DNA of 42,207 bases from Methanotrichaceae archaeon (GTDB lineage Archaea; Halobacteriota; Methanosarcinia; Methanotrichales; Methanotrichaceae), in contig CAVWIG010000022.1 of the NCBI GenBank assembly GCA_963754945.1, positions 1 through 42,207 of the forward strand, read 5' to 3'. Below the pieces are notes generated by a model, which worked only from the letters and a program-made list of their open reading frames with translations, was not told where the DNA came from and did no database searches. The position numbers were made by a program, and so were the translations under genes. Shown here one piece after another: positions 1 to 16,060 of this stretch (within the stretch, counting starts at the first letter, position 1; every line of letters begins with the position of its first letter).

Positions 1-20
1 GGTATGAATTTCGGCGAAAA

Positions 21-317
21 CTACTCATTGCGAAGAAATCTGTTAGTAAATAGAAATCCTCCTCTGACTGTCAGGTTTTTCAGACACAAACAGCTCAACG
101 AGCATTTCGTGCCACAATGGCAGAATGGGCTATGAACACCGTTTACTATAGAATGGCCTTCCTGATCCATGTAAGAAATCTCGGTATTATTCGTGGTACA
201 TTTACAGGCAGGGTCATAGATATCTATAGCCAGATTTTTGCCATCTGGACCGAGATAAATTACTTTCAAGCAAGTGCAATTCATTGACTTGTCGACTGTG
301 CTAATATTATATGCCAA
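21..317 (-). pseudogene. Probable secreted protein fragment, N-terminus truncated
   Basis: The frame extends upstream of the TTG as DSALSGIGLA (resembles the end of a signal peptide) and then hits TGA; no ATG start. Confidence 0.3.
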
Positions 318-738
318 TCCAATGCCCGAAAGGGCACTGTCTCAAAACCAAGTGATTTATAGAGTTTATTGTCACCCGATAGTGAAATCACTAAATTGTA
401 TTATTTTATGTTAATTGACATTAGGATTAATACCTTTTCTATGAAAACTTGCGCTCTATCTCAGATTATGAATACGAAATTTGAAAATATGATTCCAAGA
501 GATACCATATAAACGTCAACCATCACTTGAAAAGTCGATAGTGCCCCCGAAAGCAGCAGGACTAGTGTTATTATTCCTAATTTGTGCATTTCAATATCCC
601 CACTTGGATAGCCATATAACGTTTCAAACTTATATCTATCTCAATTTCAAGTCATGTCAGAAACTATAAATTAGAGGCATTCGGTAATATATCCTTTAAT
701 CATATCGAATCGAGGGGAAGAGATTGCGCGCCTTCAGG

Positions 739-1539
739 ATGGTTGCATTTACATTTGTATTGTTCTTGATTTGCGTATCGCCAACGCTCGCATGCCCATG
801 TGGCTGCAGCGATCCCAATTGTAACTGTGGCGGCATCCCTGGAACATGTTCTGGCGGCGGAGGAGCGACTTCCAGTTCGTCTAACAATGGACAAGCAGAA
901 GCGGAGCAATCCCAATGGGAAGGAGGGGCAAATGCATTTCTTAATAATGGTCCACAGAACGGCATGAGCGACGGAGGAGCCGGTTCGTATCAGGAGCCTC
1001 CTCCTGAGATCGCACCTATTATTGAGCAAAATAATAGGCAAGTTCTTCAGATCGGGCGCCCGACACAAGATGACAATTCCCCTCCAATAGAATTGGCCGC
1101 GGCTCCCACAGGCAAGTATAATCCAGAAGTACCTATACCACCGGGAACAGATCTTAATACGCTCGACGATGGTACTATAATTCACCTTGACCAAGGTAGT
1201 ACCAAGAATGCGCATGAAATTAGAAAGATAGGTAATGATCCAAAAACAGGAATAGCCATATTTACGGAAAAACTTCAAGGGAGGCCAATTCGAACTTTTA
1301 CAGGCTTTAATCCAAGCTCTCCATCAGGAAAGGGAAAAGATTATACTCCGGGTACCAAGGAGACACCACAAGGCGGCCCAATACCAATGGCCATATCTGA
1401 GAGTGCAAAGAAGAGTCTGACGACTACAGGCCTCGACCAAAATTGTCATAATTATCAAAAGGATCTTAGTCAGAAAATACAAGAGAAGCTAAGTACTCCA
1501 ACAACTTCAACAACTCCAACAACATCGGGTGGGCCATGA
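739..1539 (+). CDS. Secreted protein with Cys-rich N-terminus, low-complexity linker and globular C-terminal domain
   Basis: ATG at 739 gives signal peptide MVAFTFVLFLICVSPTLA, then CPCGCSDPNCNCGG; stop overlaps the next ATG (ATGA). Confidence 0.7.
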   Translation: MVAFTFVLFLICVSPTLACPCGCSDPNCNCGGIPGTCSGGGGATSSSSNNGQAEAEQSQWEGGANAFLNNGPQNGMSDGGAGSYQEPPPEIAPIIEQNNRQVLQIGRPTQDDNSPPIELAAAPTGKYNPEVPIPPGTDLNTLDDGTIIHLDQGSTKNAHEIRKIGNDPKTGIAIFTEKLQGRPIRTFTGFNPSSPSGKGKDYTPGTKETPQGGPIPMAISESAKKSLTTTGLDQNCHNYQKDLSQKIQEKLSTPTTSTTPTTSGGP

Positions 1540-2459
1540 AACGATTAATATTTTTCTTGACATTACTTGCAATTTCGATGCCCCTTAGTACCACGGCACC
1601 CACATCGCATGACGCATCTATGCCTGAGAATGGGAGTGGTCCCTATTTTCTATCATTCGACATGGGATTACCATCCACCGACTATACCATCAATGAAACT
1701 GGTCCTTATAAATATCAACAACAGAATGGCAGTATAAGTGTTTTCGAAGTACACATATCATCAAATATTAAACCACAAGTTACGTTGATTTCAATGCAAA
1801 TTTTCGAAGATAACCCATCACTACTAACGGCCAATGAATTAGAACAGATGATACACAACGAAATTGAGAACGCGACCGATATTCGAACTGCTACACTTGT
1901 AATTGACAATTCAGTAGGAGTACTTGCTTCTTATAATCTGACGGTTGCCAATATTAGCATGAAAAGTTACAGTGCAATTTATCAACCGTCCTTTGATCAG
2001 GGGCGATCACTTGTTGTAATATCTTCGAACTTTCCATGGGATCAGGGAACATCTCAATTGTTGAATACCATTCAGGTTTATGAAGCCACTGGTATGGAAG
2101 TTCCTAGCCAACCCACAGGCGCGCCGTCGACTGTGCAGCCGTCATATGCACCAGTCAGCTCGGCCACAATTACCAACCCTTCTTATAGTCCGCAACTCTG
2201 GATTAATACTGCTTCAGGTGGATCAACATACGCTCAATGTTCCTCGGGTGGCACGCTACAGCTACTGTTGTATTTGCCAAGAGGGGGATATGTAGGAGTT
2301 CACGAAATTTATCCTAACAGCGTTTCAACTGTGAGCAACTACTATTTCAACGCGGGCGAATCTATTCATATGTTCAAAGGGGATGTATCCGGTAGACATG
2401 AATTGTATCTAACATCAGGTAATGAAGAAAGCAACAAGATAACAATCGATGTAATCTAG
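1536..2459 (+). CDS. Secreted/cell-surface two-domain protein
   Basis: Signal peptide; GPYFLSFDMG motif resembles GPFSVSVDLG in 6415 and 7881; S/T/P linker; beta-rich C-terminal domain. Confidence 0.75.
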   Translation: MKRLIFFLTLLAISMPLSTTAPTSHDASMPENGSGPYFLSFDMGLPSTDYTINETGPYKYQQQNGSISVFEVHISSNIKPQVTLISMQIFEDNPSLLTANELEQMIHNEIENATDIRTATLVIDNSVGVLASYNLTVANISMKSYSAIYQPSFDQGRSLVVISSNFPWDQGTSQLLNTIQVYEATGMEVPSQPTGAPSTVQPSYAPVSSATITNPSYSPQLWINTASGGSTYAQCSSGGTLQLLLYLPRGGYVGVHEIYPNSVSTVSNYYFNAGESIHMFKGDVSGRHELYLTSGNEESNKITIDVI

Positions 2460-2802
2460 CCGAGACGACAGGGCTAATCTTCATTTACGAGAGTACGTAT
2501 AACGTGTAGAACTGACCTTTCCTTTTTGGAGTCTGCGAAGCCAGAGGATTATTTTACAAACATCTTTTTCACCTACAACTCGTCGGTATTCAGTATGGTG
2601 AGGGCAAGTTCTTATAAAGTGTGGAATTGCGTATCAGCCATCACGCAGTTTGCTCATATACTGCAAGATATCCAATTTTTGTACATACAAAAGAACAGAT
2701 TAATGCATATAACTTTATAAGGATATCATACAATTTGATAGGGTGTTATGATATAACTTGATAGGTAAGTCTCATATACTTTGGTGGTGATAAAGGCATC
2801 TA

Positions 2803-2976
2803 ATGGCGAAAGTTCAGGTTTGTGTATCAATAGATGAAAGCCTTCTTAAATGGGTCGAAGAAGGCATAACTGATAAGACGTTTGCCACTAAGTCCCACGC
2901 TTTTGAGGCGGGATTGGCTAAACTGAAGTTATCTTATCAAAACAAGGCCAAGCGCAAGAAAGGGGCAGATAGCTAA
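2803..2976 (+). CDS. Ribbon-helix-helix (CopG/Arc/MetJ-like) regulator, 57 aa, not in the ORF track
   Basis: Manual translation MAKVQVCVSIDESLLKWVEEGITDKTFATKSHAFEAGLAKLK...; GGTGA RBS upstream. Confidence 0.75.
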   Translation: MAKVQVCVSIDESLLKWVEEGITDKTFATKSHAFEAGLAKLKLSYQNKAKRKKGADS

Positions 2977-2990
2977 GTCAAAAATGGTGC

Positions 2991-3434
2991 TTGGCTATGA
3001 ATACAAGTCTCATAGAGGCGATTGATAGCTGTGTATCGACCATATCCGACCCTAGATTAAAGGCTCTCCTTACTGATTTACTCCAAGAGATTGAAAAACT
3101 AAGGGCTAGGATAATCGAATTAGAGATACAGCAAGACGATCAGGCCGACGCGATAAACAGGAACGCAGGGGCTATCAATGAGGTCTGGAGGCTCACGAAA
3201 CGTTCCCCTTCTGTCCCGAAGGGGCAGAAGACTAAAGCGCGCTTAGAAGACCTAGAGCGGATCCTGAAGTCCACAGGAGGCAGGACGTTAAGCCAGCTCG
3301 AAAAGGACTTAGACATTTCACAGCAACAAATGAGCCATCTGATCTCGAAATTAGATATGAGGCGTTATGAGATCCAGACTCGTCCAGGGAAAGGCAGAGA
3401 GAAGGTGCTTAAGCTTAGGTCCAGAATCATTTAA
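2991..3434 (+). CDS. Coiled-coil plus C-terminal winged-HTH (MarR-like) protein
   Basis: Heptad N-terminal region, then RTLSQLEKDLDISQQQMSHLISKL HTH and a wing. Confidence 0.7.
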   Translation: MAMNTSLIEAIDSCVSTISDPRLKALLTDLLQEIEKLRARIIELEIQQDDQADAINRNAGAINEVWRLTKRSPSVPKGQKTKARLEDLERILKSTGGRTLSQLEKDLDISQQQMSHLISKLDMRRYEIQTRPGKGREKVLKLRSRII

Positions 3435-3788
3435 CATTTCACGTCTAAACGTGAAGTGTGAAATGTTAAGGGGGAATAGATAAGAGTAAGCTGAAAAATT
3501 GATCGCAAACCCAAAATAACGGGCGAATTTTCCGTTATTTCTATATAAACCTAGTATTAGACATATAAGAGTAATGCGTTAGCAATGCGTTAGAAGGTGA
3601 TTATATCTTAAAAAGAGAATAGATATAACATTTCACGGATAACGTGAAGTGTGAAGTATCTTGCCTACAGATATCGATTTTCACGCTTTATATCTCTCTA
3701 AGTCTTGGTTTTACTCGGAGCTGCGTTCGCAGCTCCACTATAAAGAAATTGATCTTTTTATACAACGTTAAGAAAAAAAAAGATCAAT
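3431..3788. repeat. Cluster of palindromes and direct repeats (candidate origin/operator region)
   Basis: TAACATTTCACG-N4/5-ACGTGAAGTGTGAA at 3432 and 3626; 12-bp IR at 3431-3442/3458-3469; AATGCGTTAG x2 near 3572; hairpins 3717-3736 and 3748-3788. Confidence 0.7.
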
Positions 3789-4242
3789 AGGTTCAATATA
3801 AATATTTTTGCAATGTTCTAGTATGTATAACATTTTCTCCCCAAAAAATCATGATTGCATTTTCGCTACGCGTCAAACTCATTCGCTGCATAGCGATTAT
3901 CGATTCGTTTAATATTATCAAACCCATTCTAACTCGTAAAGCAGCCCTTTGCGGTATAGATTATATATCATCAGAATCGCTATGCTCTGCCACATTAGAC
4001 CGATAACAGGCGAGCTGATCAATTTGTGCTTAAAGTCTGTGGAATAATAGGTTTGCCAGAAGAGCGTTTAGGCCGATTTTGCAAGTTGTATATCGGTCTA
4101 TGGATTACTTTCGCGGTGCCTATGTGCACCCTCAGATTAGTTCTATGACATTTTTGATAAGCATGTGCAAAGTGTAATAGAACTTTCTAGGCGAGCGGAC
4201 CCATAACCCTTATGGCTATCTTGCAACCTTCCAGAGATAATA

Positions 4243-4821
4243 ATGACAGAAGACCGCTTGATGATCTTTATTGACGGGCAAAACCTGATGGGAGGGGCCC
4301 GCAAATTACACGCACTGGTTGACAGTGTCAAACTAACAAATACGCTAGCTGAGGGGCGAAAGCTAAAAAGGGTGTACTATTACAACTCAATACCACCAAA
4401 CCCGAATAATGACCCTGAATTGAAAAAAAAGATAGATAAGGAAATGGGTTATTACTATTACCTAGAATATTCGGGATTTAAGACTTCGATTATCCCACTG
4501 AGGAAAAGGACTTTCGATTTCAAATGTGATAGTTGCGGCGAAACCATTACAATTGAAAAGGAAGTTGAGAAAGGCGTAGACGTTGCTTTAGTTTCGGATT
4601 TGCTCTCTCTGGCCGCGGTAGGAGCCTATGACGTTGCCACAATAGTATCCGGAGATCTCGATTACCACAAAGCAATAGACGAAGTTCAAAGGCGTGGACT
4701 GATTGTAGAAGTGGCATATTTCAAAAGCCAGGGCATCAGCAAAGATCTGATTCGGCTAGCAGATCGCTTCATTGATTTGGAGCTGATACTAGACAAAATC
4801 AAACCCGATAAAAGAGAGTAA
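4243..4821 (+). CDS. NYN domain (LabA/DUF88, PIN-like) ribonuclease with a CxxC insertion
   Basis: FIDGQN, EKGVDVAL and SGDLDY motifs; CDSCG insert. Confidence 0.9.
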   Translation: MTEDRLMIFIDGQNLMGGARKLHALVDSVKLTNTLAEGRKLKRVYYYNSIPPNPNNDPELKKKIDKEMGYYYYLEYSGFKTSIIPLRKRTFDFKCDSCGETITIEKEVEKGVDVALVSDLLSLAAVGAYDVATIVSGDLDYHKAIDEVQRRGLIVEVAYFKSQGISKDLIRLADRFIDLELILDKIKPDKRE

Positions 4822-4826
4822 TTAAC

Positions 4827-4866
4827 CAGGCGGCAAGCGATTACTCGCTATTTTCAGAGCCGCCTG
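4827..4866 (+). terminator. GC-rich stem-loop downstream of the NYN gene
   Basis: CAGGCGGC...GCCGCCTG stem with inner AGCGA-TTAC-TCGCT hairpin. Confidence 0.4.
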
Positions 4867-4926
4867 TGAGCTATTAACATAGATACCTTCTTCTGTTCTG
4901 GTAAAAAGCTTTTGGTGTGGATCTTT

Positions 4927-5464
4927 TTCATACCTCAGTCATACTTTGGTAGGAAAATTGTATTACCAAGTTCATACTACAGTATGACACATGGCTAAAA
5001 TAGCCGTCTCTATTCCTGATTCCACATTAAAAAAACTTGAGGAAGGCAGTAATACCAAGGGTATGAATCGATCCCAATATGTGGCAAAGGCCATTGATTT
5101 TTATTCAAACGGAGCCGATAACTACAAAATCGAGATCGATAGGCTAAATAGCCAATTGGCGGAGAAGATCAAAGAATTGGAATCATTATCCGAAGAGGTA
5201 TTACCACTACGCGAGAAAGTTCATACCCTAAGTAATACCTTTATAGATAAGGAAAATGAGCTAAAGAAGAAAACCCTTGAAGTAGGAACAAAAGCTAACG
5301 AGGTATTCCAGAAGGATAAACGGATTCATACCCTAGAGAACCAGATAGCAGAAACGCAAAAGAAAATAGAATCGTTGTCAAACGAGGTATTACTCGCGAA
5401 GGAAGAGGGTATGAAAGCTCGCGAAGAGCTAGAAAAAGCACGATCTGAAGCCTCGAAGTATGAG
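4927..5464. repeat. Array of about 15 8-bp motifs KTMATACY in both orientations
   Basis: Copies at 4927, 4938, 4959, 4971, 4981, 5049, 5060, 5197, 5220, 5232, 5302, 5325, 5386, 5408, 5457. Confidence 0.7.
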
Positions 5465-5611
5465 ATGGCCTTCAAGAGTCAACAATCAGATATAGAGTTT
5501 CTACGTGGTCATGTCGGCCAACTTACCCAACAGATAAGCGTCCTGGCCTTACCGCCATCCCAGGAAGAGGCCAAAAAGAAAGGCTGGTGGCAATTTTGGA
5601 GGAGGGATTAA
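4991..5611 (+). CDS. RHH DNA-binding domain, long coiled coil and C-terminal KKKGWWQFWRR tail
   Basis: MAKIAVSIPDSTLKKLEEG...MNRSQYVAKAI RHH; heptads; basic/aromatic tail. Confidence 0.85.
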   Translation: MAKIAVSIPDSTLKKLEEGSNTKGMNRSQYVAKAIDFYSNGADNYKIEIDRLNSQLAEKIKELESLSEEVLPLREKVHTLSNTFIDKENELKKKTLEVGTKANEVFQKDKRIHTLENQIAETQKKIESLSNEVLLAKEEGMKAREELEKARSEASKYEMAFKSQQSDIEFLRGHVGQLTQQISVLALPPSQEEAKKKGWWQFWRRD

Positions 5612-5612
5612 A

Positions 5613-6131
5613 GTGAACCCGGTTGTCCTCATTGCATCGATAAACGCCGCTTTGAATCACGCCTCCCCAAACTTAATTAAAGATTGGTTACCCTCGATAA
5701 CAGCAATTGTTGTTGTGATAATAGGCGGGATCTTAACATATTTGTCGACTATCAGAATAGAAGAACAAAAACGTCAATATGAACTAAAAAAGGATGTTTA
5801 CTTTAATATAATGGGTGTTATTGTTGATTTTAGAAGCGAAAATGAAACTTATAATGAACTTTATAATAGTTCCAAAAAATTGACTGGGGACCCAACCGTC
5901 CCACTTGACCGAATTAAAAGGATAAAAGATTTATTAAAATTGCTGGAAATGAAGATGAAAATTAGCGCGGGCGAAGACATAAATTGCATTTTTGGCGATG
6001 TGATAAGAAAGGCTCAAAATGTAGAGGATTATCAAGCCTTTAACGACGCTGTCTTTAACCAGTTAATTCCAGCAATAAAAGATGATTTGATGAAAAATCA
6101 AAAGCACTGGTGGCAATTCTTGATTAAATGA
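5613..6131 (+). CDS. Single-TM hypothetical protein ending in HWWQFLIK
   Basis: Hydrophobic ITAIVVVIIGGILTYL; GTG start directly after the upstream stop; low GC. Confidence 0.7.
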   Translation: MNPVVLIASINAALNHASPNLIKDWLPSITAIVVVIIGGILTYLSTIRIEEQKRQYELKKDVYFNIMGVIVDFRSENETYNELYNSSKKLTGDPTVPLDRIKRIKDLLKLLEMKMKISAGEDINCIFGDVIRKAQNVEDYQAFNDAVFNQLIPAIKDDLMKNQKHWWQFLIK

Positions 6132-6334
6132 CAAGCTTCTCACAGTCTCCACGTGACCGGATCCTCTGGACACTGGCCGCCCACGGCGGAAAGATGGAGC
6201 GGAGCAGATTAAGAAGATGTATGGGAGTGGAAGATGCATTACTGAATCCTATCCTTGAGGAGCTGGCCAGGGAAGGCAGAATAAGAATCGCCACTGGCAA
6301 GGATAGCGATTTGATATCTCTGATAAGTCGATAG
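6128..6334 (+). CDS. Small winged-HTH protein, repeat copy 1
   Basis: RDRILWTL...MERSRLRRCMG...LLNPILEELAREGRIRI wHTH pattern; ATGA overlap with the upstream gene. Confidence 0.65.
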   Translation: MTSFSQSPRDRILWTLAAHGGKMERSRLRRCMGVEDALLNPILEELAREGRIRIATGKDSDLISLISR

Positions 6335-7045
6335 GGTGTAGCGATTACTGTCGTAGACACCGTAAGCGATGCTTAATAAGGGGTGAGAATTAATGAATAT
6401 TCTTAAGGGATTGAATGAAAATCAACACGAAGTTTTTTGTTGTGATGGGTGTGGCGTTGGCTGTATTTTGCATTACATTGGCCTATGGTACTGTTACTAC
6501 ATTTAAGACAGGGCCGTTTAGTGTCAGTGTCGATTTAGGCGTGCCGTGTAATGATACAAATATCAGCAAACCTGCTCAAAGTGAGTGGCTGAATGGAAAC
6601 AGGTACATTGACTACAATATGAGCACGTGTGGAGTTTCTATCTTCCTTACAACGACGGACAATGCAAATTATGATCTGAACAGCGGCTTTGACACAGGTG
6701 TTACTAAGGACGACCTGCTGAAGCTGGGTGCCGACAAAGAAACGATCAATGTATCCGAGAGTAAGATCAATGGTTGGCCAGGAGCAGTTGGATCAGGTCA
6801 TGTATCAAAATATGGTTCAACGATATACGAAGCTGATTTCTACGTCAACCCACAAACAGTTGGTCATATATTACTTGATAATAACGAAACTGAAATAATA
6901 TCTGCTCTGAAGACTATCCATGTAACGGAAGCGGCATAGGTGCGTAGGATAGAAACTACAACCCCAATTGTTGTTGCATGCAGGATGCAAGAACATTTCT
7001 CCACTATCCTTTAACCAGCTATTTTTGATATATTGTTTATATCTA
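6248..7045 (+). repeat. Direct duplication, copy A (about 800 bp)
   Basis: Near-identical to 7714-8510, offset 1466 bp. Confidence 0.9.
6415..6939 (+). CDS. Secreted protein, paralog 1
   Basis: Signal peptide; near-identical to 7881-8405. Confidence 0.85.
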   Translation: MKINTKFFVVMGVALAVFCITLAYGTVTTFKTGPFSVSVDLGVPCNDTNISKPAQSEWLNGNRYIDYNMSTCGVSIFLTTTDNANYDLNSGFDTGVTKDDLLKLGADKETINVSESKINGWPGAVGSGHVSKYGSTIYEADFYVNPQTVGHILLDNNETEIISALKTIHVTEAA

Positions 7046-7390
7046 GTGGGACTTACCCATGGACGAGCGGTGCATCGGAGCTAGTTTAGTTAAAACGATT
7101 CATGTCGAAAAACTGTAGATAATAAGGACTGGTGGCAGTTCTGGAAATAGGCGAAGGGGGACTGGAAGAGTTTTGCGGTGTAGAAGGAATAACATCCCTT
7201 AGCTTGAAAACATCCCATTGTACTCAGACGTATTTAGGATGAGTAGCTTAGGAGATAATATGACTGCTAAGTCGGGTCGTCGCCCGAGAGCTCCACCCAA
7301 GAGGGAAGCAACATTTGATACTGAACTTCAGAGATACGTCATGCCAGGCGAACGCCGTGTCACCATGACAAAGTAGGACAGAGGAAGCAA

Positions 7391-7591
7391 ATGAATGAAC
7401 ATTGCGCATTTTGTGGCGGCAACGATTGGACTGAAATCGACTCCAAAAAAGTGCACTGTCTTAAGTGCGGTGCAAATCGATTTCTTTCGCAGGCGCTACC
7501 AAAGAAGCCAAAGAAAGCAAAGACTGAAGAAAAACCTACATCTGTCGTATCGGACAGCGATATAGACAGCGACTCAAATGGAGACCAATGA
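7391..7591 (+). CDS. Small zinc-ribbon protein
   Basis: CAFCG...CLKCG; GAGG RBS; stop overlaps the ATG of wHTH copy 2. Confidence 0.6.
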   Translation: MNEHCAFCGGNDWTEIDSKKVHCLKCGANRFLSQALPKKPKKAKTEEKPTSVVSDSDIDSDSNGDQ

Positions 7592-7800
7592 CGAGCCTAC
7601 TCCGTACAGTCTCTGCGTGACAGAAAATCCTTTGGATACTGACCAACAACGACGGCAAGATGGGGCAAAGCAGGTTGAGGGCACACACAGGGATGAGATA
7701 TGCACTGCTTAACCCTATCCTTGAGGAGCTGGCCAGGGAAGGCAGAATAAGAATCGCCACTGGCAAGGATAGCGATTTGATATCTCTGATAAGTCGATAG
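7588..7800 (+). pseudogene. Small wHTH, repeat copy 2, frameshifted near the 5' end
   Basis: The ATG frame stops at TGA 7618; the homologous RDRKSFG/ILWILTNNDGKM...GMRYALLNPILEELAREG continues in another frame. Confidence 0.7.
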
Positions 7801-8510
7801 GGTGTAGCCATTACTGTCGTAGACACCGTAAGCGATGTTTAATAAGGGGTGAGAATTAATGAATATTCTTAAGGGATTGAATGAAAATCAACACTAAGTT
7901 TTTTGTTGTAATGGTTGTGGCATTGGCTGCATTTTGCGTTACATTGGCGTCTTGTACTGTTACCACATTTAAGACAGGGCCGTTTAGTGTCAGTGTCGAT
8001 TTAGGTGTGCCGTGTAATGAAACAAATATCAGCAAACCTGCCCAAAGCGAGGGACTGAATGGAAACAGATACATTGACTACAATACGAGCAAGTGTGGAG
8101 TTTCTATCTTCCTTACAACGACGGACAATGCAAATTACGATCTGAACAGCGGCTTTGACACAAGCGTTACTAAGAACGATCTGCTGAAGCTGGGTGCCGA
8201 CAAAGAAACGATTAATGTATCCGAGCGTAAGATCAATGGTTGGCCAGGTGCAGTTGGATCAGGTTATGTATCAACAAATGGTTCAACGATATACGAAGCT
8301 GATTTCTACGTCAACCCCCAAACAGTTGGTCATATATTACTCGATAATAACGAAACTGAAATAACATCTGCTCTGAAGACTATCCATGTAACGGAAGCGG
8401 CATAGGTGCAGGGAGAAAACTACAACCCAAATTGTTGTTGTACGCAAGATGCAAGAACATTTCTCCTTTATCCTCTAACCAACTATTTTAAATATATTAT
8501 TTTATATCTA
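7714..8510 (+). repeat. Direct duplication, copy B
   Basis: Matches 6248-7045. Confidence 0.9.
7881..8405 (+). CDS. Secreted protein, paralog 2 (LASC may be a lipobox)
   Basis: Paralog of 6415; signal region ends in TLASC instead of TLAYG. Confidence 0.85.
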   Translation: MKINTKFFVVMVVALAAFCVTLASCTVTTFKTGPFSVSVDLGVPCNETNISKPAQSEGLNGNRYIDYNTSKCGVSIFLTTTDNANYDLNSGFDTSVTKNDLLKLGADKETINVSERKINGWPGAVGSGYVSTNGSTIYEADFYVNPQTVGHILLDNNETEITSALKTIHVTEAA

Positions 8511-8650
8511 TCTCTATCTCAAAGTAATCGATGTCTATCAATCCAGTAAAATCCCACTGGGCCAGGCAAGCACTGCCTTTGCTCCGGCCATGCTCCCCAG
8601 AAATAAGCATCTATAGACCTTATGGTGCAAGATGCACCGGTGGGGGATCA

Positions 8651-8760
8651 ACAGGGATGAGATATGCACTCTTGATCCTATCCTTGAGGGGCTGGCCCGT
8701 GAAGGCAAGATCAAAATAATTATTGGCAACCTTGGCGATTTGATATCGCTGAAAGAATAA
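8651..8760 (+). pseudogene. Small wHTH, repeat copy 3 (3' part only, 1-bp deletion)
   Basis: ACAGGGATGAGATATGCACT identical to copy 2, then DPILEGLAREGKIKIIIGNLGDLISLKE. Confidence 0.7.
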
Positions 8761-9042
8761 TAAGGAGGGAGGTAAACACTGGGCTGCGTTCGCGCATAGA
8801 ACGCCTGGTATCATCGGCCAGAATACCTATCGGTTACAAAGGAAAAGTGGTGACAAGGTATAAGATTGAGGGATTGTTCTTAGCAGGGTTCGCGATAATG
8901 GTAAGCTCCATGCAAAGCCGTTCTCCGAAACCAAAATAGATCGAATCTATTCTGCGTTAAAATTCATATACCAGAAGTGATTAACTTCTAAAATATCGGG
9001 TAACGTGCATCGGGACTAAATCGCTATCTAAAGGATCATAAA

Positions 9043-9096
9043 GGTGCGGGGAAAGGGATTCGAACCCCTGAACTCCTGCGAGAATAGATCTTGAGT
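9043..9096 (-). mobile_element. att site: 3' half of tRNA-Leu(CAA)
   Basis: Reverse complement ACTCAAGATCTATTCTCGCAGGAGTTCAGGGGTTCGAATCCCTTTCCCCGCACC contains the anticodon loop, variable arm, T-arm and acceptor 3' strand; no 5' half adjacent. Confidence 0.85.
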
Positions 9097-9111
9097 ATAC
9101 TATATTTATCA

Positions 9112-9222
9112 TTAGCACTCCGTTTAGCACGAAACCGCGTTATAGTTAGCGATTTAGCGTTTTAGCCTCAGTTAAGCCCATTTACTTATTAGCGGACTTA
9201 GTATTTAAGTTTTTACGCTAAA
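9112..9222. repeat. TTAGC repeat cluster next to the att site (candidate integrase arm sites)
   Basis: TTAGC at 9112, 9124, 9146, 9154, 9162, 9189; inverted GCTAA near 9218. Confidence 0.55.
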
Positions 9223-9320
9223 TAGTTTCACTATATTTAGAGATAATGAGCCATTCCGCAAAGATGTACAAAAAGGGCGAAATTATTTAGTTCAATTTAA
9301 AATAATTATGTTTAAAAATG

Positions 9321-10685
9321 CTACTTCCCTAATTGAATAGCATCCTTTGAAAGTCCGAATGCAGCGATTATCTTTTTTGAGCGGGCCAATTGATCCCATG
9401 GACCCAAATTTGTATCGACATAGATATCCGTCCCCTCTATCTTCTCGCCATGCTTGAATTCATCAGGATTTTTTGAAAAGAAATTATATTTGGAACCTTT
9501 AATCTCTAGCACCTTTTCAAATCCATCCTTATGCCTGGATGCCATTATTGCACAAACTTTAGGGAGCATGTCTTTCCAGAGTTCGAGTTTATACGTTTGG
9601 CCTTCAAATATGAACGACTTTTCACCTGGTGGCTTAATCCCAGATGCTATTTGATCCGAATATTTATAAATATCATCTACTGAATTTATGGAAGTCATTG
9701 TTTCTTTCCCATTTTCATCAAAAAGACCAATCGATTTACGTTTATCATTTAAATATAAACGACATATAGTCCTCTGAGATGGGCCCTCAAGTAGAATATC
9801 AAAAGAGTTTTCAGAATCATTGGTAATGATCTGGTTAGGGCTTACTAGATCTTTTAATAAGGTTTTAACGATATAAAAGCCTTCTAATTTCTCTTTTGAT
9901 GATCCAATATTTTGTTCAGGAGAGTGAATAGTAATGACTGACCCTTCAGACGTTTTTGCAAGGTCCAATCTATAATTTATTTTATCTTCAATATACTGAT
10001 CAAGTGTCTTCTTCGTGAGCTTAGTAAATTGACTCACAACTTTATCGGTCACATTTCCGATATGCACTTGTGATGCAAAGTATTTGACAAATTTGGGAGA
10101 CGGATCTTTGAATTCTCTATCAATTAGTCTTCCTATATCACCCATATATTTAAGTTCACGTGCCCTATCTTTAACAGCAGTGGGGTCATATGGTTTGGAG
10201 AAATTCTTTAATTCCGCTATCGTAGAGTCTCTTATCTCTTTTATGCTAAATTCAAGAAATGGTTCATCATCTAGGACATTTTCTTTTACTAAATCAGTGT
10301 AAAATCTGTAAATAATACCATCGGTTAAAATAGCAAACTTAGGGTTCTCTGCAAACTTAGGGTCTTTGGCATTAATAAAATTAAAGTATGTTGCAAGTTG
10401 TGGAATATGCTCCTTATTTAAATCGGTACCATAACATTTACATTCAATTAATATTATTGGGTTTCCTTCTTTTAAAATTGCATAGTCAACTTTTTCATCC
10501 TTCTTACCGCCCCTATTCGCGCCGTACTCTGGCACAACTTCTTCAATACTCCTTATATCATAACCTAAAATGTCATTTATAAATGGCTGAACCAATGCGG
10601 TTTTAGTAGCTTCCTCAGTTTGAATATGCTCAACTTGTTTTTTAGCATGAGACTGCAATTCATGTATTTTATCAATGAAGTCCAT
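9321..10685 (-). CDS. HsdR N-terminal (type I restriction R-like) nuclease domain fused to a C-terminal SeqA-like domain
   Basis: TEEATKTALVQPF...VVPEY...KVDYAI...ILIECK...LTDG; C-terminal KGSKYNFFS...IEGTDIYVDTN resembles SeqA-C; likely start MDFIDKI at 10685. Confidence 0.8.
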   Translation of the reverse strand: MDFIDKIHELQSHAKKQVEHIQTEEATKTALVQPFINDILGYDIRSIEEVVPEYGANRGGKKDEKVDYAILKEGNPIILIECKCYGTDLNKEHIPQLATYFNFINAKDPKFAENPKFAILTDGIIYRFYTDLVKENVLDDEPFLEFSIKEIRDSTIAELKNFSKPYDPTAVKDRARELKYMGDIGRLIDREFKDPSPKFVKYFASQVHIGNVTDKVVSQFTKLTKKTLDQYIEDKINYRLDLAKTSEGSVITIHSPEQNIGSSKEKLEGFYIVKTLLKDLVSPNQIITNDSENSFDILLEGPSQRTICRLYLNDKRKSIGLFDENGKETMTSINSVDDIYKYSDQIASGIKPPGEKSFIFEGQTYKLELWKDMLPKVCAIMASRHKDGFEKVLEIKGSKYNFFSKNPDEFKHGEKIEGTDIYVDTNLGPWDQLARSKKIIAAFGLSKDAIQLGK

Positions 10686-11144
10686 TCTTATATCACCAGG
10701 TAGAGTCTTATGCCTCATACAAAGAATGAACGGAAATACTTTTGCATTATTTAATGTCAATCATGCCAATAAGCTGAGTGATAGCCTATGTGAAGATTAT
10801 ACTTAAATTTATTTGGATGTTACTGTTTTTATTTAACTGTATGTTTTAGTATGCTACTTTTCGCTTAGGTTCCCCATTTTACTAAGTCAACCATTACGTA
10901 GATTATAGTAATAGCAGCTTCATATAACGTAACTACATACTTATTGGGCTCCGAACCATGTTTATAAAATTGCACTTATGTCAATGGCGTTACGCCTATT
11001 GATTTTGCACCGAATAGCGTCACACGATTTTGAATTATATATCAAATGTAACAACTCCATGGAATGAAAAATATATTATATCTGTATCTGAAAGTTGTTG
11101 CTATTAGCTTCATTAAAGGAATCGGGAGCACATAGATGCTATAC

Positions 11145-11347
11145 AGGGAAAAGTAGAAGGTTATGAGAAGTCTAAAAAAGTAGATGATACGCCAATCTTA
11201 CCTATGAACCAGATCTATTATAACTTCATTAGGCCACATCAGGCACTGAAAGGTAAAACCCCTGCTGAAATGGCAGGGGTAGGAATCGATGGAGAGAATA
11301 AATGGATGGGATTGATTGAGAGAAGTGCTAAAAGGAGGAGTCCTTAA
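11145..11347 (+). pseudogene. C-terminal fragment of a DDE transposase (IS6/IS1-like), frameshifted
   Basis: KVMRSLK/VDDTPILPMNQIYYNFIRPHQALKGKTPAEMAGVG...KWMGLI. Confidence 0.75.
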
Positions 11348-12237
11348 ATTTCTTTATTGTATCCATTGCGCTTTGCTCCTAGTTCATGTTGTCTCTTTTC
11401 TACTAATATCTTGATATTTTTGAGAACCTCTTTGGCTTTTTGCTTATTCTCCGGAAATAAGGGTAATTTGAGATAAGTATCTATCTCTTTGTCCAACGGA
11501 TCTCTCGCCAAATCAAGAAACTCATACATTATTTTCTTAATCTCTGCACGCAATTTGGCAAGTTCTTCTCGCTCTTTTGGCCTCTGGAAATACTGTAGAA
11601 GTATATGAGCATCTATCAAACTCATGAATTCAATAATCTCGTCATCTTTGGCGAATGCGGCATGTAACGGACCAATAAGGTGTCTTAATTCGTCTTCTTC
11701 CTCCTTCGTGACTAATCCTTTCAATTTTTCCCCAAATTTGGTCGTTTCGTTTCTGGCGTCATCGAGTTCGCTTTGTTTTGTTTCCAAATCTTGCTTCGCC
11801 GTATGTACTTTATTCTCCAATTGAGATATTTCGTTTTTGGCAGCATCGAACTCATTTTGCTTTGATGCGAGTGCCTTCTCTGTCTTAGTTCGTTCGCTAT
11901 TCGCGTTTGCAAGTTGACGCTTATACACGTAAGTTATAACTGAATTGATAACTAACCCTGAGATGAGTATACCAATAAAAATCTGCTCGAATGATAAGCT
12001 CCAGAAAAGGGTCACGCTAAACCATCCCCGGAGATAGCCTAGTGCGAGTAATAAGATTGAACCTATTGTATATATATTGCCAATGTGACTGAGATACGAA
12101 TATATTTTTTGAACCCAGCGATTTTGTGAGATATTTCTTAATCTTGGTGGGCTCATAGCGCATCCTATTGGACATCGAGAATATAAGTTCTCTCCAACCG
12201 AGCAACTTATGTAAATTCGTTTCACTGTAATTAACAC
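11344..12237 (-). CDS. Two-TM membrane protein with a coiled coil (start probably MSPPRL near 12156)
   Basis: Two hydrophobic segments followed by heptad repeats. Confidence 0.7.
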   Translation of the reverse strand: MLITVKRIYISCSVGENLYSRCPIGCAMSPPRLRNISQNRWVQKIYSYLSHIGNIYTIGSILLLALGYLRGWFSVTLFWSLSFEQIFIGILISGLVINSVITYVYKRQLANANSERTKTEKALASKQNEFDAAKNEISQLENKVHTAKQDLETKQSELDDARNETTKFGEKLKGLVTKEEEDELRHLIGPLHAAFAKDDEIIEFMSLIDAHILLQYFQRPKEREELAKLRAEIKKIMYEFLDLARDPLDKEIDTYLKLPLFPENKQKAKEVLKNIKILVEKRQHELGAKRNGYNKEI

Positions 12238-12351
12238 AACAGTAACACGCCTTTAGGAAGTTGTTACCAGTAAACACCCTATCATGCGACATCACTTAAG
12301 AACACCCCCAAACGCGACAGAACCCCAAAGGCGAAAACTATTATAGAATAT

Positions 12352-12915
12352 CAAACCAGGCCGCGATTATCAAAAATGGCTTCTACGCAGAATCCTTCAG
12401 TCTCCGGACATGCAAACTGGACCTTGAGTTTGGCTAGCCGCTCCAGGTCGCCTGTCTCGATAAAGCGTCTCATCTTACGCTTAATCGCTTTCTGCGCAGC
12501 TCGAATCTGCTCCGGGGTCAACTTGGCAGACCTCCTTGGGCAGCTTCAGCAGCTTGCCTCATCTTTTGGTCGCTCAGGTACCTCTAGCCTAGCCAGCTCC
12601 ACGGTAACTTTGTTAATGGCATCGACCGCCATCAAATACGCATTATGTACCATCCCATTTGATGACTTGGTGTCTAAGCCCTCTACCTGTTAATAGGCTC
12701 TCCATGAAGGATTCATACTCATAAGACCTGCGGAATACCGGACTTGAAAGCCTATAATCCTTTATTTCGCCGATGTTCTTACGAATACGCTCCAATTGGT
12801 CCCGAATGCCCAAAAGCCGCTTGATGTCGCCTGACTCCTTGCAGCGCCGGATCTTACGCTTAATGTTCTTTTGCTGTTGTTCTATGTTGTCTAGGCTAAT
12901 TGTCTTAGCAGCCAT
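12352..12915 (-). pseudogene. Degraded element gene with an internally repeated domain
   Basis: ORF 12643-12915 (IKRKIRRCKESGDIKRL) appears to continue by frameshift and past a TGA into IKRKMRRFIETGDLERL. Confidence 0.45.
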
Positions 12916-13219
12916 CGCTTATACCTCGTACACGCGAAGGCCTCTTAGGTCTAGGTTTAGGCTTCATTTGCTCCAAGATCGCTGCGTAACGGTCCTGGAA
13001 CGTTGCCACCGCCTTCAGTGCCTTCTCATGTCGGTCTGCCATCATCGAAGCTGCGTGCTCCTCATCAAAACCCGATTCTCGGAGGCACGCGAGCTCTTGT
13101 AGGAGGTCTATATCGGAATCACTGAGGGATGTTAACACCAGACTCACAATGTCCGGCTCGGTTGTGGGCCGACCTTCCAAACGATCCAGCCGCTTCTGCA
13201 GGGCAGTTACAGCGACCAT
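12905..13219 (-). CDS. Small mobile-element protein (LQKRLDRLE motif)
   Basis: Overlapping operon arrangement; helical N-terminal LxxRLxRLE. Confidence 0.6.
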   Translation of the reverse strand: MVAVTALQKRLDRLEGRPTTEPDIVSLVLTSLSDSDIDLLQELACLRESGFDEEHAASMMADRHEKALKAVATFQDRYAAILEQMKPKPRPKRPSRVRGISDGC

Positions 13220-13458
13220 CGTCTGCCCTCTGAGCCTAATTGCTCCTCTAGGGCCTTCAGCCGCTTCTCGATGGCCTCGATCTTGCTCATTTCGTGGCCT
13301 TTTAACCAGACCTGTAGTAAGTTACAGATGCGGCCAGCGTTTTCTACCTGTTTGCCTTCATTGCAGATCTCTTCGAGAACCGACCTGATCAATTCCTTTA
13401 CATCGGAGACGTCATTTAATTTTAGACAGGAATATTTTCGACTATCATTTGAATTCAC
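13207..13458 (-). CDS. Small helical mobile-element protein (terminase-small/DUF5681-like pattern)
   Basis: LNDVSDVKELIRSVLEEI...AGRICNLLQVWLK...IEKRLKALE. Confidence 0.55.
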   Translation of the reverse strand: MNSNDSRKYSCLKLNDVSDVKELIRSVLEEICNEGKQVENAGRICNLLQVWLKGHEMSKIEAIEKRLKALEEQLGSEGRRWSL

Positions 13459-13567
13459 TAAAACCTCTTAATATTATTTGCTATGCGTTATAAATGTACG
13501 GGGGGGTATTACTTTAGGTTTGAACACTCAGGGCCTGCACATCAAAACACCCAGGCGCTTTGCTGGA

Positions 13568-13825
13568 CTACTGCTGCTTTTGACTAATAACGCGGTAATA
13601 ACGCGGATTTCCTCGGGTTGTAACTACTATCATGTCATGAAGCATATCATAAGGCACTGGCCATTCTTCGGGATGTGGTAACCTCGTGCCATATTCTGCG
13701 TCGGGAAAAATCTCAAAGTATTCCCTATCCGATTCATATACTTCATTCAGTGGCGGAATCTCCATTGAGGGTTTCGATTTAGTGTTGGTTAATGAAGCCT
13801 TAAATTCTTGCGTTAATATTTTCAA
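13568..13825 (-). CDS. Hypothetical mobile-element protein
   Basis: Co-oriented with the small-gene cluster; DREYFEIFPDAEY motif. Confidence 0.4.
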   Translation of the reverse strand: MKILTQEFKASLTNTKSKPSMEIPPLNEVYESDREYFEIFPDAEYGTRLPHPEEWPVPYDMLHDMIVVTTRGNPRYYRVISQKQQ

Positions 13826-13916
13826 TCTTTATAGTGGTTTTTTAGCATATTTCACCCCTAAATTGGCTTATTAGATTTCAATTTACCTTGTTGTTTCTAA
13901 TTTTTGCGCTTTTTTA

Positions 13917-15051
13917 GAGAGCTTCCGCTAGGCTGTTTGTTTATGCACTAAATATTTCAACTGTTCCAGGTTGTAAACGACCGAATTCATCATGAATTTT
14001 ACTCCAGCTCTTGCGACAGTTGTTACATAAACATGTGCTCCCTTATGCCCCCGCTTCATAACAGCGAAGCATCTTTCGATGTGCGATCGCGTTTTACTGA
14101 TTCTCTTATTCCTCAGAAGATCTATGATTCCAAGCTTGTGACCTCTTGTAGCTTTTTTCATGGCTGCATCATATCCTCGAGTTTTTGCACCATCATATCC
14201 CTTATCGGCGTAACGTGGTAGCCCTTCAATTCCAAGATCTACCTGACTATCGTGTACAGAAGCAGTTGTAGTCTCAAAATATCTGATAAGGTGGTAATTG
14301 GTATCGATTGAGATATGACCTTTATATCCGAAAAAGGATTTGACACCCTTTTTTGCCCAACTTCCCTCATTTATTGGCTCTTCTTCGAGTCTCTGTGGTT
14401 TGGCCTTGTCATCAATAATATTATTTGAAATACCAATTAGCTCTTTATCAAACTCCTGATTCAGGCTCGTACTGGTGGCTTCGGAATCTTGACCTTCCTT
14501 TTTGTCCCCGCCTTGCTCGTCTTTCTTGTTCCTCTTCCGACCTGGGTCCGAAGTTATGAAGGTTGCATCCTGGATAGTGCCATTCTTTACAGTAAACCCC
14601 ATCTCATCGAGCTGCCTTTGAAGCTCATTCCAAAGATCATCGTATACGTCGCACTTAATCAAACGTTCACGGAATAGCCAAACTGTGCTGAAATCAGGAA
14701 TTACTTCAGTGGTGCCAAGGAAAATACGAAAAGAGATCCTATCCGCAACCTGTCGCTCCAGTTCTGGATCTGTTAGACCAAACCAATGCTGAATTACGAG
14801 AGCTTTCACCATAATCACGATGTCAATGTTCGGACGACCTCCGCGGCTAGTTTTATTTTTGTATATCAATGGTTCCAAAAATCTGAAACGCTCCCAATTG
14901 ATCAACGATCCGATCTCGGATAGATCATCTCCGAGGGCTTTTACTCGAGCATATTCTGCTCGAATGGCAAAATCAATGAGAGTCCTCATGCATTATATTA
15001 TAGTATTAATAGTATATAAGTATTTCGATTGATTAGTTTTTCGAAACTCTC
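13917..15051 (-). mobile_element. IS5-family insertion sequence
   Basis: Imperfect TIRs GAGAGCTTC (13917) and GAAACTCTC (15043-15051) flank the transposase; no matching TSD. Confidence 0.85.
13928..14989 (-). CDS. IS5 family transposase
   Basis: GGRP, LTDPELE, PDFSTVWLFRERL, IQDAT, FGYKGH, YADKGY and RSHIERCF motifs. Confidence 0.95.
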   Translation of the reverse strand: MRTLIDFAIRAEYARVKALGDDLSEIGSLINWERFRFLEPLIYKNKTSRGGRPNIDIVIMVKALVIQHWFGLTDPELERQVADRISFRIFLGTTEVIPDFSTVWLFRERLIKCDVYDDLWNELQRQLDEMGFTVKNGTIQDATFITSDPGRKRNKKDEQGGDKKEGQDSEATSTSLNQEFDKELIGISNNIIDDKAKPQRLEEEPINEGSWAKKGVKSFFGYKGHISIDTNYHLIRYFETTTASVHDSQVDLGIEGLPRYADKGYDGAKTRGYDAAMKKATRGHKLGIIDLLRNKRISKTRSHIERCFAVMKRGHKGAHVYVTTVARAGVKFMMNSVVYNLEQLKYLVHKQTA

Positions 15052-15346
15052 AAAGGATTTGGAGAACCGGTTGAAAGATTTCAAAGGCATCGGGCCGGTG
15101 ACGGGGCAGATATTCTTAAGGGAGATGAGAGGGGTTTGGGACATCAATCTGGATGTATCGAATAAAGCGTTGGAGATGGCAGAGTCGCTGGGCATAGATT
15201 TAGAGGAGTTTTCCGGTGAAAAGCTATCCCGAGTGGAAACTGCGCTTATTAAACTTTACATCAGATGCCGCAAGAAAAAGAGATGTGTAGAATGTCCCCT
15301 TTCCGAATGCCAAAGGAAAGTTATCCCTCATAGACCTAGAGAATAG
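15052..15346 (+). pseudogene. C-terminal part of an HhH-GPD-like protein truncated by IS5
   Basis: LKDFKGIGPVTGQIFLRE HhH motif and CxxxxxCxxCPxxxC; the ORF start lies inside the IS end. Confidence 0.7.
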
Positions 15347-15532
15347 AATCACCCAAAATAGATGAAGATCGATGAGACGATGCGTGCTGTAATCCTTGGA
15401 AATAACAGGTTAAAGCTAATGAATATATAGCAATGGTCGGCCTTCACAATATCATTATTAGACCGTATGAGCATAGTCCTCGAATACAGTCATCCAAAAC
15501 TTTTCTATACTTTTGCAATATTATAGTAATTC

Positions 15533-15823
15533 ATGATAGTAGCTGACTTTTCCATGGTTCCTATGGGATCTGGGACCAGCGCGGCGAAGTACATTAGGGC
15601 TGTTTACGATATTCTGAGAGAATCAGGCGTAAAGTTTGTTCCTGGCCCGATGTCCACTTCGGTTGAGACCAAAAGCTTCGAAGAACTCTTTGGTCTGATA
15701 GAGAAGGCGAACCAGAGGCTTAAAGAGATGGGTGTCCAGAGGATAATCACTTCTGTAAACATAGACTACCGCTTGGACAAGGAGATTTCTATCGAATCCA
15801 AACTCAGGGCGACTGGAAAATGA
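15533..15823 (+). CDS. MTH1187/YkoF family thiamine-binding protein
   Basis: ADFSMVPMG...GPMSTSVE...RIITSVNIDYRLDK. Confidence 0.9.
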   Translation: MIVADFSMVPMGSGTSAAKYIRAVYDILRESGVKFVPGPMSTSVETKSFEELFGLIEKANQRLKEMGVQRIITSVNIDYRLDKEISIESKLRATGK

Positions 15824-15898
15824 GCTGTCATCTGAGTGCTTTAATCAGGGCTCTCCGCGCGAAACTAGAATGAGATAAGAAACTCGGGAAATGTATCA

Positions 15899-16060
15899 AT
15901 GGTTATAAGCAGCTTTCTGACCAACTGTCCCAGATGCGGCTATATTGTCGAGGCTTGGACAGAGGACGGGGTCACAGCAAAAGTGCGATGCAGAATGTGT
16001 GGCTACGAGGGAACTCTGCCAAATCCCGACCTTAAGGATAAACTCTGGAGAATCGGATAA
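15899..16060 (+). CDS. Small CPxCG zinc-finger protein, 53 aa, not in the ORF track
   Basis: MVISSFLTNCPRCGYIVEAWTEDGVTAKVRCRMCGYEGTLPNPDLKDKLWRIG. Confidence 0.7.
   Translation: MVISSFLTNCPRCGYIVEAWTEDGVTAKVRCRMCGYEGTLPNPDLKDKLWRIG

Follow-up and report, generated by a model that had tools for sequence, protein, structure and literature searches.

Gene content of the accessory region

The window, that is, the whole 42,207-nucleotide stretch of Methanotrichaceae contig CAVWIG010000022.1 (C22) that we analyzed, holds an accessory region in which three copies of a small winged-helix (mini-wHTH) gene lie among backbone and cargo genes, all on the forward strand unless stated otherwise. At its upstream side lies a 147-aa element-backbone gene encoding a coiled coil and a C-terminal HTH (2991..3434), which clusters with proteins of seven other loci (cluster 5); two members of this cluster match plasmid pGP6 at 10812-11318, and the window protein itself has no pGP6 match at E 1e-4. 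Behind it follow an inverted-repeat cassette with no strand assigned (3431..3656; 12-bp arms at 3431-3469 and a related second copy at ~3626-3656) and a cargo gene for an NYN-domain nuclease (4243..4821; PF01936, E 2.6e-21; PADLOC NYN/HEC-09 matches). The next backbone gene (4991..5611) encodes an RHH-like and coiled-coil protein ending in KKGWWQFWRRD, with a homologue on pGP6 (NC_015430.1; tblastn E 2e-8). This RHH-coiled-coil gene was found in 42 of the 105 family genomes, and its last ~55 nt are another multicopy junction repeat, for which blastn gave 80 hits in 69 records. Multicopy modules besides the mini-wHTH lie in the window at 3946-4092, 5546-5600 and 7124-7380.

The array proper starts with a 172-aa cargo ORF (5613..6131) that closes with its own copy of the WWQF tail; a Pfam search with it returned no family over the cut-off. 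It overlaps mini-wHTH copy 1 (6128..6334), an intact 68-aa ORF, by an ATGA at 6128. Within copy 1, a 13-bp "core" (6248..6260; codons P41-I42-L43-E44 plus one base) opens a tract identical in copies 1 and 2. Downstream lies the first copy of a 174-aa gene (6415..6939), whose product is probably secreted or anchored, as predicted from its N-terminal hydrophobic segment, and has no Pfam or PHROG match. A remnant WWQFW tail with a small "MTAK.." ORF (ATG at 7260) makes up a multicopy module (7124..7376; cluster 17) with blastn matches in ~20 loci. A 66-aa Zn-ribbon-like ORF (7391..7591), with weak Pfam Zn-ribbon hits under the cut-off, is also found upstream of a wHTH in loci L026 and L014, and overlaps copy 2 (7588..7800) by an ATGA at 7588. 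Sequence comparison identified a second, diverged 174-aa gene behind copy 2 (7881..8405; ~7% different from the first) and mini-wHTH copy 3 (8643..8760). On the reverse strand, a 3' fragment of tRNA-Leu(CAA) resembling an att site (9021..9100) is 96-98% identical to C15 11849-11927 and 23494-23556, the complete tRNA-Leu(CAA) being at C15 11819-11905, and seven TTAG(C/T) motifs lie beyond it at 9112-9202. An Rfam scan of window positions 1-16000 gave a single match at chance level.

Much of what the first-pass annotation had described in these copies was confirmed. The core, CCTATCCTTGAGG, occurs in exactly three places in the window (6248, 7714 and 8677) and nowhere on the other strand; both ATGA overlaps are present; copies 1 and 2 match without a difference over 6248-6342 and diverge at many positions upstream; and copies 2 and 3 are broken, the former by an in-frame TGA at codon 11 and the latter as a 3' stub that starts ~86 nt into the gene and is frameshifted just before the core. 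A 20-mer at 7687/8651 is indeed identical in copies 2 and 3; it is the family consensus (exact in 5 of 76 non-redundant full copies, at most one mismatch in 22 of 76), so that it does not link these two copies in particular, and a derivation of copy 2 from copy 3 was ruled out. The 5' flank of copy 2 is found instead in L026 and L074. The copies had also been thought to separate different cargo genes; the same 174-aa gene stands behind copies 1 and 2, which head a 926-bp duplication (6127-7045 and 7587-8510; 89.7% identity). We estimate the junction in the chimeric copy 2 at gene position 117-133. Copy 1 is a mosaic too: over the first 120 nt it is 92-93% identical to L011-L013, and over the 3' part it is 95% identical to L014, a locus that also has the wHTH plus 174-aa gene unit. 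A Fisher test on mismatches (2/181 vs 43/617, p 0.0014), which uses a hand undercount (51 columns listed) and a boundary set post hoc, is only suggestive of a recent conversion tract.

The mini-wHTH family and its host elements

The repeat is a previously undescribed 68-aa winged-helix gene under purifying selection: 63 of the 76 non-redundant full copies are intact, and the median dN/dS over 1887 pairs of copies is 0.23. It is a selected protein gene and not merely a site derived from coding DNA. The 68-aa protein has 293 homologues, and its AlphaFold model (pLDDT 85.5) displays three helices and a wing; structure matches fall on the wHTH fold (Z 9-10.7), the best being of MarR/ArsR type (Z 10.7, rmsd 2.5 over 67 residues), and a Foldseek search with the model gave no hit at E 0.001 or better, so the assignment stays at the level of the wHTH fold and names no subfamily. 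Judging from this modelled fold, the protein would most likely be a transcriptional regulator of the accessory operon. A search of Pfam returned only DUF7343, under the cut-off, PHROGs and PLSDB returned no match, IMG/VR contained one locus, and the protein Atlas listed unnamed clusters first and then DUF2582. In the literature covered, from which subscription journals and bioRxiv supplements are excluded, we found no description of the family or of this part of the Methanothrix mobilome. Conservation of the repeat sets in sharply ~7 nt ahead of the ATG and breaks off just as sharply at the stop codon. A promoter-like AT-rich motif is shared upstream of 14 of the 76 copies, and many copies stand in small islets between housekeeping genes. 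This genome holds 14 pieces of the repeat, and most of its copies are broken; metagenomes gave 413 hits.

Judged by gene context, the mini-wHTH gene occupies an accessory slot of pGP6-related plasmid and integrative elements of Methanotrichaceae. It is usually the last gene of an accessory operon, behind an RHH-coiled-coil-WWQFW gene or a ParA pair; an RHH-coiled-coil-WW[QR]FW gene and a coiled-coil/HTH gene are both present, and the backbone of the loci is linked to pGP6, ParA, Hfq and integrases. Plasmid pGP6 of Methanothrix soehngenii GP6 (NC_015430.1) likewise carries an RHH-coiled-coil-WWRFW gene and a converging coiled-coil/HTH gene of cluster 5, but it lacks the mini-wHTH and has no cargo in that slot. 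When 41 cargo proteins were submitted to PADLOC, 6 matched, two of these being generic methyltransferases, and the idea of a dedicated defence array was dropped.

Exchange of neighbours and position of breakpoints

The first-pass annotation had proposed that the repeat works as a recombination hub. Confinement to this locus with constant neighbours, which would have spoken against a hub, is contradicted by matches in 26 of the 105 family genomes and by diverse flanks, with 50 upstream types in 68 copies and 48 downstream types in 72 copies. Among 2926 copy pairs, 27 share the upstream flank only, 32 the downstream flank only and 25 both (mostly redundant contigs), and the 59 pairs with just one flank in common, together with recurrent tandem arrays, support the hub. 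Same-orientation arrays of unrelated copies occupy about one fifth of the loci, and adjacent copies are co-oriented in 26 of 27 cases. Because neighbouring copies are no more alike than random pairs (~0.6-0.86 vs a median of 0.75), the arrays have accreted and were not amplified locally. The RHH-coiled-coil gene, taken as a control, is followed downstream by neighbours that vary just as much (25 types in 29 loci), so that much of this diversity may reflect general mosaicism without a special role for the mini-wHTH.

The switch itself had been placed at the 13-bp core. As a conserved site the core was rejected: it is exact in just 15 of 76 copies, its third codon positions vary and other 13-mers reach 38 of 76, although our locus search used a peptide pattern spanning the core, which should favour its conservation. 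Furthermore, breakpoints and the ends of stubs are spread over the gene, the very pattern named beforehand as incompatible with a switch at the core. Within the gene, linkage falls off as sites lie farther apart (Spearman -0.10, a value as low as this being reached in 0 of 500 permutations), with no drop unique to the core. In pairs that share the downstream flank, excess identity is -0.05 at the 5' end and increases gradually toward 0.58 at the 3' end without a step at 120-150, and the best breakpoints of 19 such pairs fall at 40-64, 92, 121-144 and 161-203. Internal breakpoints show 95-100% identity on one side. Each of 12 3' stubs has a starting position of its own (+38 to +133), and the ends of 18 5' stubs range from +39 to +148.

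Routes of array growth

We consider it probable, though well short of certain, that the arrays were built by homologous and homology-anchored illegitimate recombination through the mini-wHTH gene. About 155 nt of the gene stay ~80% identical among many co-circulating elements, which would make it the main homology patch in otherwise unrelated DNA. Crossovers or conversions anywhere in the gene, presumably by RadA-type homologous recombination, would produce the swapping of flanking genes that we observe. Where homology in the gene held one end of an event and the other end was joined illegitimately, a new gene-plus-wHTH unit would be added, and such additions could leave the same-orientation arrays and random-length stubs described above. 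Recombination between the second wHTH of an L014-like unit (wHTH, 174-aa gene, Zn ribbon, wHTH) and a related element probably produced the chimeric copy 2 and the second 174-aa gene of the window; the junction would lie in the core because there the two parents matched. A conserved anchor, scattered internal breakpoints and co-oriented non-sister units, as expected of a homology-anchored array, were all found. Several observations count against this explanation. Some events map to the core or to positions shortly after it (window, 121; L014, 133; L016/L042, 144; others at 141 and 144). Pairs sharing only the upstream flank have almost zero excess identity within the gene, and 3 of 4 recent pairs of this kind break in the first 20 nt, a start-codon cluster not predicted by uniform crossing-over. 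An identity of ~75-80% across 200 bp is on the low side for homologous recombination to be efficient. No recombination event was seen directly: the sequencing-run contigs compared (best share 0.31 of words) gave 7 joints, all forward skips and none circular, and no piece spanning the stretch.

A possible but distinctly less probable explanation does without a hub: the mini-wHTH would be one of several small accessory genes in highly mosaic elements, illegitimate recombination and whole-gene selection would put junctions at gene ends, the copies would be debris of integration and decay, and the window a one-off partial duplication. Gene-end junctions of this origin correspond to one of two models of phage mosaicism given in PMC3233612. 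The equally variable control gene, an upstream similarity to the WWQFWK tail that fades at lengths of 0 to 47 nt, the other multicopy modules of the window and the broken state of most copies in this genome all fit it; however, in-gene breakpoints with near-perfect identity on one side, the linkage decay and the co-orientation of adjacent copies require homology-directed events.

We regard as doubtful a dedicated gene-capture system with a coding gene as docking site, in which insertion would occur at the WWQFWK/ATGA junction or in the wHTH gene and exchange would be promoted by the wHTH protein or an element integrase. A gene captured at that junction would acquire a stop codon and a membrane-binding tail and become translationally coupled, and the system, if real, would amount to an analogue of integrons whose att site is coding. 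Somewhat less likely still is a site-specific cassette system in which a tyrosine recombinase of the element, possibly guided by the wHTH protein, acts at the 13-bp core or the WWQFWK/ATGA junction. Junction clusters at 121-144 and near the start codon, the bracketing of ORF 5613-6131 by two copies of WWQF-coding DNA and the tRNA-Leu att fragment 260 bp from copy 3 are consistent with such a system, as is the presence of an integrase no more than 3 kb away at 8 of 113 loci (6 once three identical loci are merged) compared to 1.6% of random genome windows. Use of the 3' parts of protein genes as att sites is known from archaeal elements, as stated in PMC6563490; here, neither a constant stub start with an adjacent integrase nor a fixed crossover point was found, 105 of the 113 loci have no integrase in the DNA examined around them, and the inexact core and scattered stub ends also argue against site-specific action. 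The linked tyrosine recombinase that one would look for is absent from contig C22, which has no PF00589 match.

The integron-like array envisaged at the outset is not supported. An attC site has RYYYAAC/GTTRRRY ends and a bottom-strand hairpin. No such motif pair occurs in 4900-9300 (1 of 76 copies has one), hairpin folding was not significant in 6 of 6 pieces (z-scores -1.25 to +1.18), and the best IntI score in genome G000 (87.7% complete) was 53.9 bits against the TIGR02249 cut-off of 265.

An account of the repeat as a small MITE-like or retro-copied element that transposes non-autonomously and inserts behind other genes is very unlikely: the repeat's sharp limits and its many copies in islets among housekeeping genes would suit such an element, but target-site duplications and terminal inverted repeats show no excess over swapped controls in 68 copies (mean longest match 5.56 vs 5.63 and 5.26 vs 5.37), near-identical dispersed copies with both flanks new are absent, and the protein is under purifying selection. 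Just as improbable is an assembly artefact that made the copy-2 chimera by joining strain variants through the 95-bp identical tract; this tract is a graph repeat and no public contig spans the stretch, but the two 174-aa genes are ~7% apart, many identical 1.29-kb IS copies are resolved within contigs, which suggests long reads, and the family-level results are independent of this contig.

Swapping of neighbours through the repeat is best described as most likely ordinary homology-based recombination and not an integron-like machine at a 13-base site; the mini-wHTH family is new, and the mechanism is of a known kind. Homologous and homology-facilitated illegitimate recombination is the proposed origin of the orphan effector/immunity arrays of Vibrio T6SS and Rhs (PMC5361080), which likewise have a conserved coding anchor, breakpoints that are not site-specific and unrelated units rather than local duplicates; in contrast, our loci belong to archaeal mobile elements, their anchor is a 68-aa wHTH gene that stands alone, and in place of toxin-immunity pairs they carry a mixture of cargo (membrane and secreted proteins, restriction genes, TPR). 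Integron arrays, including archaeal integrons and CALINs (10.1101/2022.02.06.479319), share co-oriented repeats 0.3-3.8 kb apart with short, mostly unknown genes between them, but our loci differ in having no attC core pair or hairpin, no IntI, unfixed junctions and a selected protein gene as repeat. In the phage "boundary sequence" model (PMC3233612), short homology between modules also lets related mobile elements exchange genes, whereas here the boundary is a whole small gene that is multicopy in one element and leaves stubs. Like acr-aca loci (PMC7648647, PMC6538845), these loci combine frequent recombination with a small conserved HTH gene that closes a variable operon in mobile elements; they differ in their winged-helix fold and in having many large or membrane-protein neighbours, and the likeness drawn here is one of gene arrangement rather than of anti-CRISPR identity or an operator.

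These data demonstrate no new recombination enzyme or site; the family offers a natural data set for studying how arrays grow through short coding homology with no integrase involved. Among the methane producers that use acetate, Methanothrix species are major ones. In their elements, the mini-wHTH gene and the WWQFW tail mark entry points of strain-specific genes (surface, membrane, restriction), and they can therefore be used for discovery of cargo through guilt-by-association, as aca genes were.

The repeated gene and its distribution

The repeat within window 6128..8760 is a gene for a 68-aa winged-helix protein (mini-wHTH; predicted model, pLDDT 85.5), whose closest structures are generic MarR/ArsR-type wHTH proteins (Z 10.7). 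No curated family matched it, and literature searches, supplements excluded, found no published description of the family. Homologues fall into 293 clusters. We found 14 pieces in the window's genome (DNA profile search) and protein-profile matches in 26 of 105 Methanotrichaceae genomes, with a maximum of 12 per genome; a single-protein search of 12 genomes from two other families found none.

For comparison we analysed loci from the best 80 of 413 metagenome matches (79 loci), 13 genome loci, one viral locus and relatives' loci, a sample biased to intact, consensus-like copies; we excluded L001 and L006, which are the window itself, and L095-L097, which duplicate L094. L002, from a same-genus genome, and L090 are identical around the gene. 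DNA conservation extends from about 7 nt 5' of the ATG to the stop codon. Because 63 of 76 non-redundant full copies retain an intact ORF and the median dN/dS is 0.23, mini-wHTH is a gene under selection. In the window's own genome the majority of copies are broken.

The three copies and their 13-bp core

Of the three, only copy 1 (6128-6334) keeps a whole 68-aa reading frame: copy 2 (7588-7800) is interrupted by a TGA at codon 11, and copy 3 (from about 8643) is a frameshifted 3' stub. The first-pass annotation had recognized the loss of copies 2 and 3 as ORFs, and the features it described are present: the ATGA overlaps of copies 1 and 2 with upstream genes, and the 13-mer core at 6248, 7714 and 8677. 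The copies do not, as had been thought, separate different cargo. The same 174-aa gene (6415..6939 and 7881..8405) stands behind copies 1 and 2, because 6127-7045 and 7587-8510 form one 926-bp duplication (89.7% identity, self-BLAST). Copies 1 and 2 are identical over 6248-6342 and nearly so to 6428, after which 51 alignment columns differ up to 7045.

Copy 2 is still a chimera, but copy 3 lacks support as its proposed partner: the 20-mer tying the two equals the consensus of the family (5 of 76 non-redundant full copies have it exactly, 22 with at most one mismatch) and therefore says nothing of copy 3 as parent. Loci L026 and L074 have the upstream Zn-ribbon ORF (7391..7591) and first bases in common with copy 2, and the 3' part is common to copy 1 and locus L014. 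Copy 1 is also mosaic, with its first 120 nt 92-93% identical to L011-L013 and its sequence after the core 95% identical to L014; in L014 the same succession of wHTH, 174-aa gene, Zn ribbon and wHTH stands behind another upstream gene. A small 'MTAK..' ORF module (7124-7380; 38 aa from ATG 7260) occurs in about 20 other loci, frequently immediately before a wHTH copy.

The core itself, proposed as the site of the switch, does not behave as one. An exact core is present in 15 of 76 copies, compared with up to 38 for other 13-mers of the gene, and its synonymous positions vary. Best breakpoints are scattered (40-64, 92, 121-144 and 161-203 in 19 downstream-sharing pairs, which are not independent; 8, 12, 17 and 117 in four upstream-sharing pairs), as are the ends of stubs. 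In downstream-sharing pairs excess identity shows a gradual increase along the gene and no jump at the core. Linkage falls with distance, and its value across positions 20-50 is no higher than that across the core. However, a handful of recombination events map to 121-144, which would be expected if repeated crossovers leave each flank in linkage with nothing beyond its nearest conserved block. Upstream flanks also appear to lose their linkage at the start codon itself, which is the basis for an unlikely reading of the arrays as a dedicated gene-capture system with a coding docking site (the WWQFWK/ATGA junction or the wHTH gene); the same loss of linkage is expected, though this is unproven, from selection for whole genes.

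The likening to an integron array was not upheld: we found no attC motif or hairpin in the repeat, no IntI, and no recombinase on the window's contig, and the repeat fails when measured against integrons as defined in 10.1101/2022.02.06.479319. Neither TSD nor TIR was present at mini-wHTH copies.

Flank exchange and mobile-element context

The suggestion that the repeat acts as a recombination hub was largely borne out by varied flanks, one-sided flank sharing and arrays, although other genes of these elements have variable flanks too. Upstream flanks comprise 50 types in 68 copies and downstream flanks 48 types in 72; 27 pairs have only the upstream flank in common and 32 only the downstream one. 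Of 97 loci with a median length of 3.2 kb, some of them redundant, 22 contain two or three copies; L005 probably represents a single copy that is split. Adjacent copies are co-oriented in 26 of 27 cases and no more alike than random pairs, stub values being deflated. For the control, an RHH-coiled-coil gene, downstream flanks fall into 25 types among 29 loci, and a wHTH lies within 1.5 kb in only 3 of 30; its loci come from more distant genomes and the comparison is loose.

This RHH-coiled-coil protein, with its WW[QK]FW end, is a recurrent mini-wHTH neighbour (13 loci including the window), as are ParA with a small partner, Hfq, a coiled-coil/HTH gene and tyrosine integrases. The DNA that codes for the WWQFW tail forms a multicopy junction repeat of its own (5546-5600, 6100-6125 and 7124-7150), and the tail ends unrelated cargo ORFs overlapping the wHTH by ATGA (window ORF 5613-6131; loci L089, L059 and L039). 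An inverted-repeat cassette (3431-3469 and about 3626-3656) lies directly 3' of the coiled-coil/HTH gene. Plasmid pGP6 of M. soehngenii carries homologues of the RHH-coiled-coil gene and of coiled-coil/HTH cluster members; mini-wHTH is absent from it. Cargo is mixed and mostly without annotation (38 of 62 neighbours lack a Pfam match).

The window array is flanked by backbone genes (2991-3434 and 4991-5611) and a tRNA-Leu(CAA) 3' fragment (9021-9100); the full tRNA gene, with another att copy, adjoins an integrase on C15, a second contig of this genome. In better assemblies many copies sit in small islets amid housekeeping genes. Of 113 loci, 8 have an integrase no more than 3 kb away, compared with 1.6% of random windows, and 7 have a tRNA piece nearby, compared with 4.3%; an average 3.5 of 6 kb is covered per locus.

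Several further features were observed. The stretch 9021-9260 is attP-like, joining the tRNA fragment to seven adjoining TTAG(C/T) motifs on a contig without an integrase, and the true tRNA-Leu(CAA) locus on C15 contains tandem elements. A 479-aa HSDR_N protein (type I restriction-like; 9321-10760) adjoins the att fragment in a 34-35% GC stretch. The non-coding stretch 3946-4190, without an Rfam match, recurs in many islands, both in this genome and in relatives (up to 91% in genome G001). An IS5-like transposase (DUF772 + DDE; 13766-15052) has expanded recently, with dozens of copies at 99-100% identity in the genome, and a 118-bp inverted repeat (22527-22644 and 39562-39679; 99% complementary, arms 16.9 kb apart) encloses a higher-GC block of housekeeping genes. 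Since the viral contig L103 has terminase-like genes beside ParA, its partner, an Hfq-like ORF and mini-wHTH (619-2074 and 4045-5589), the module is found on a virus-like element as well. In four 26-27-kb contigs under bacterial MAG titles (L094-L097), one wHTH fragment appears two times, about 13 kb apart; these contigs may represent a circular element that was misbinned and assembled as a dimer.

Mechanism and known systems

Taken together, these results demonstrate a selected multicopy wHTH gene with flank exchange at internal breakpoints, accreted co-oriented arrays and a mobile-element context. RadA-type crossover and homology-anchored illegitimate joins probably cause the exchange and the arrays, and the protein probably has a regulatory role. 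Four sequencing runs, available as contigs only, contained none spanning the stretch and revealed no circles or live rearrangement; their seven joints, all forward skips, are best explained by paralogous loci.

An element using a protein gene as att site (PMC6563490) was rejected as a parallel, since mini-wHTH stubs fail the fixed-stub test. The mini-wHTH arrays work like T6SS/Rhs orphan arrays (PMC5361080) and as in the boundary-sequence model for mosaic phages (PMC3233612), and acr-aca loci (PMC7648647, PMC6538845) are similar in layout. The gene family and array type are new in Methanotrichaceae, and what drives the arrays is most likely a mechanism of known kind.
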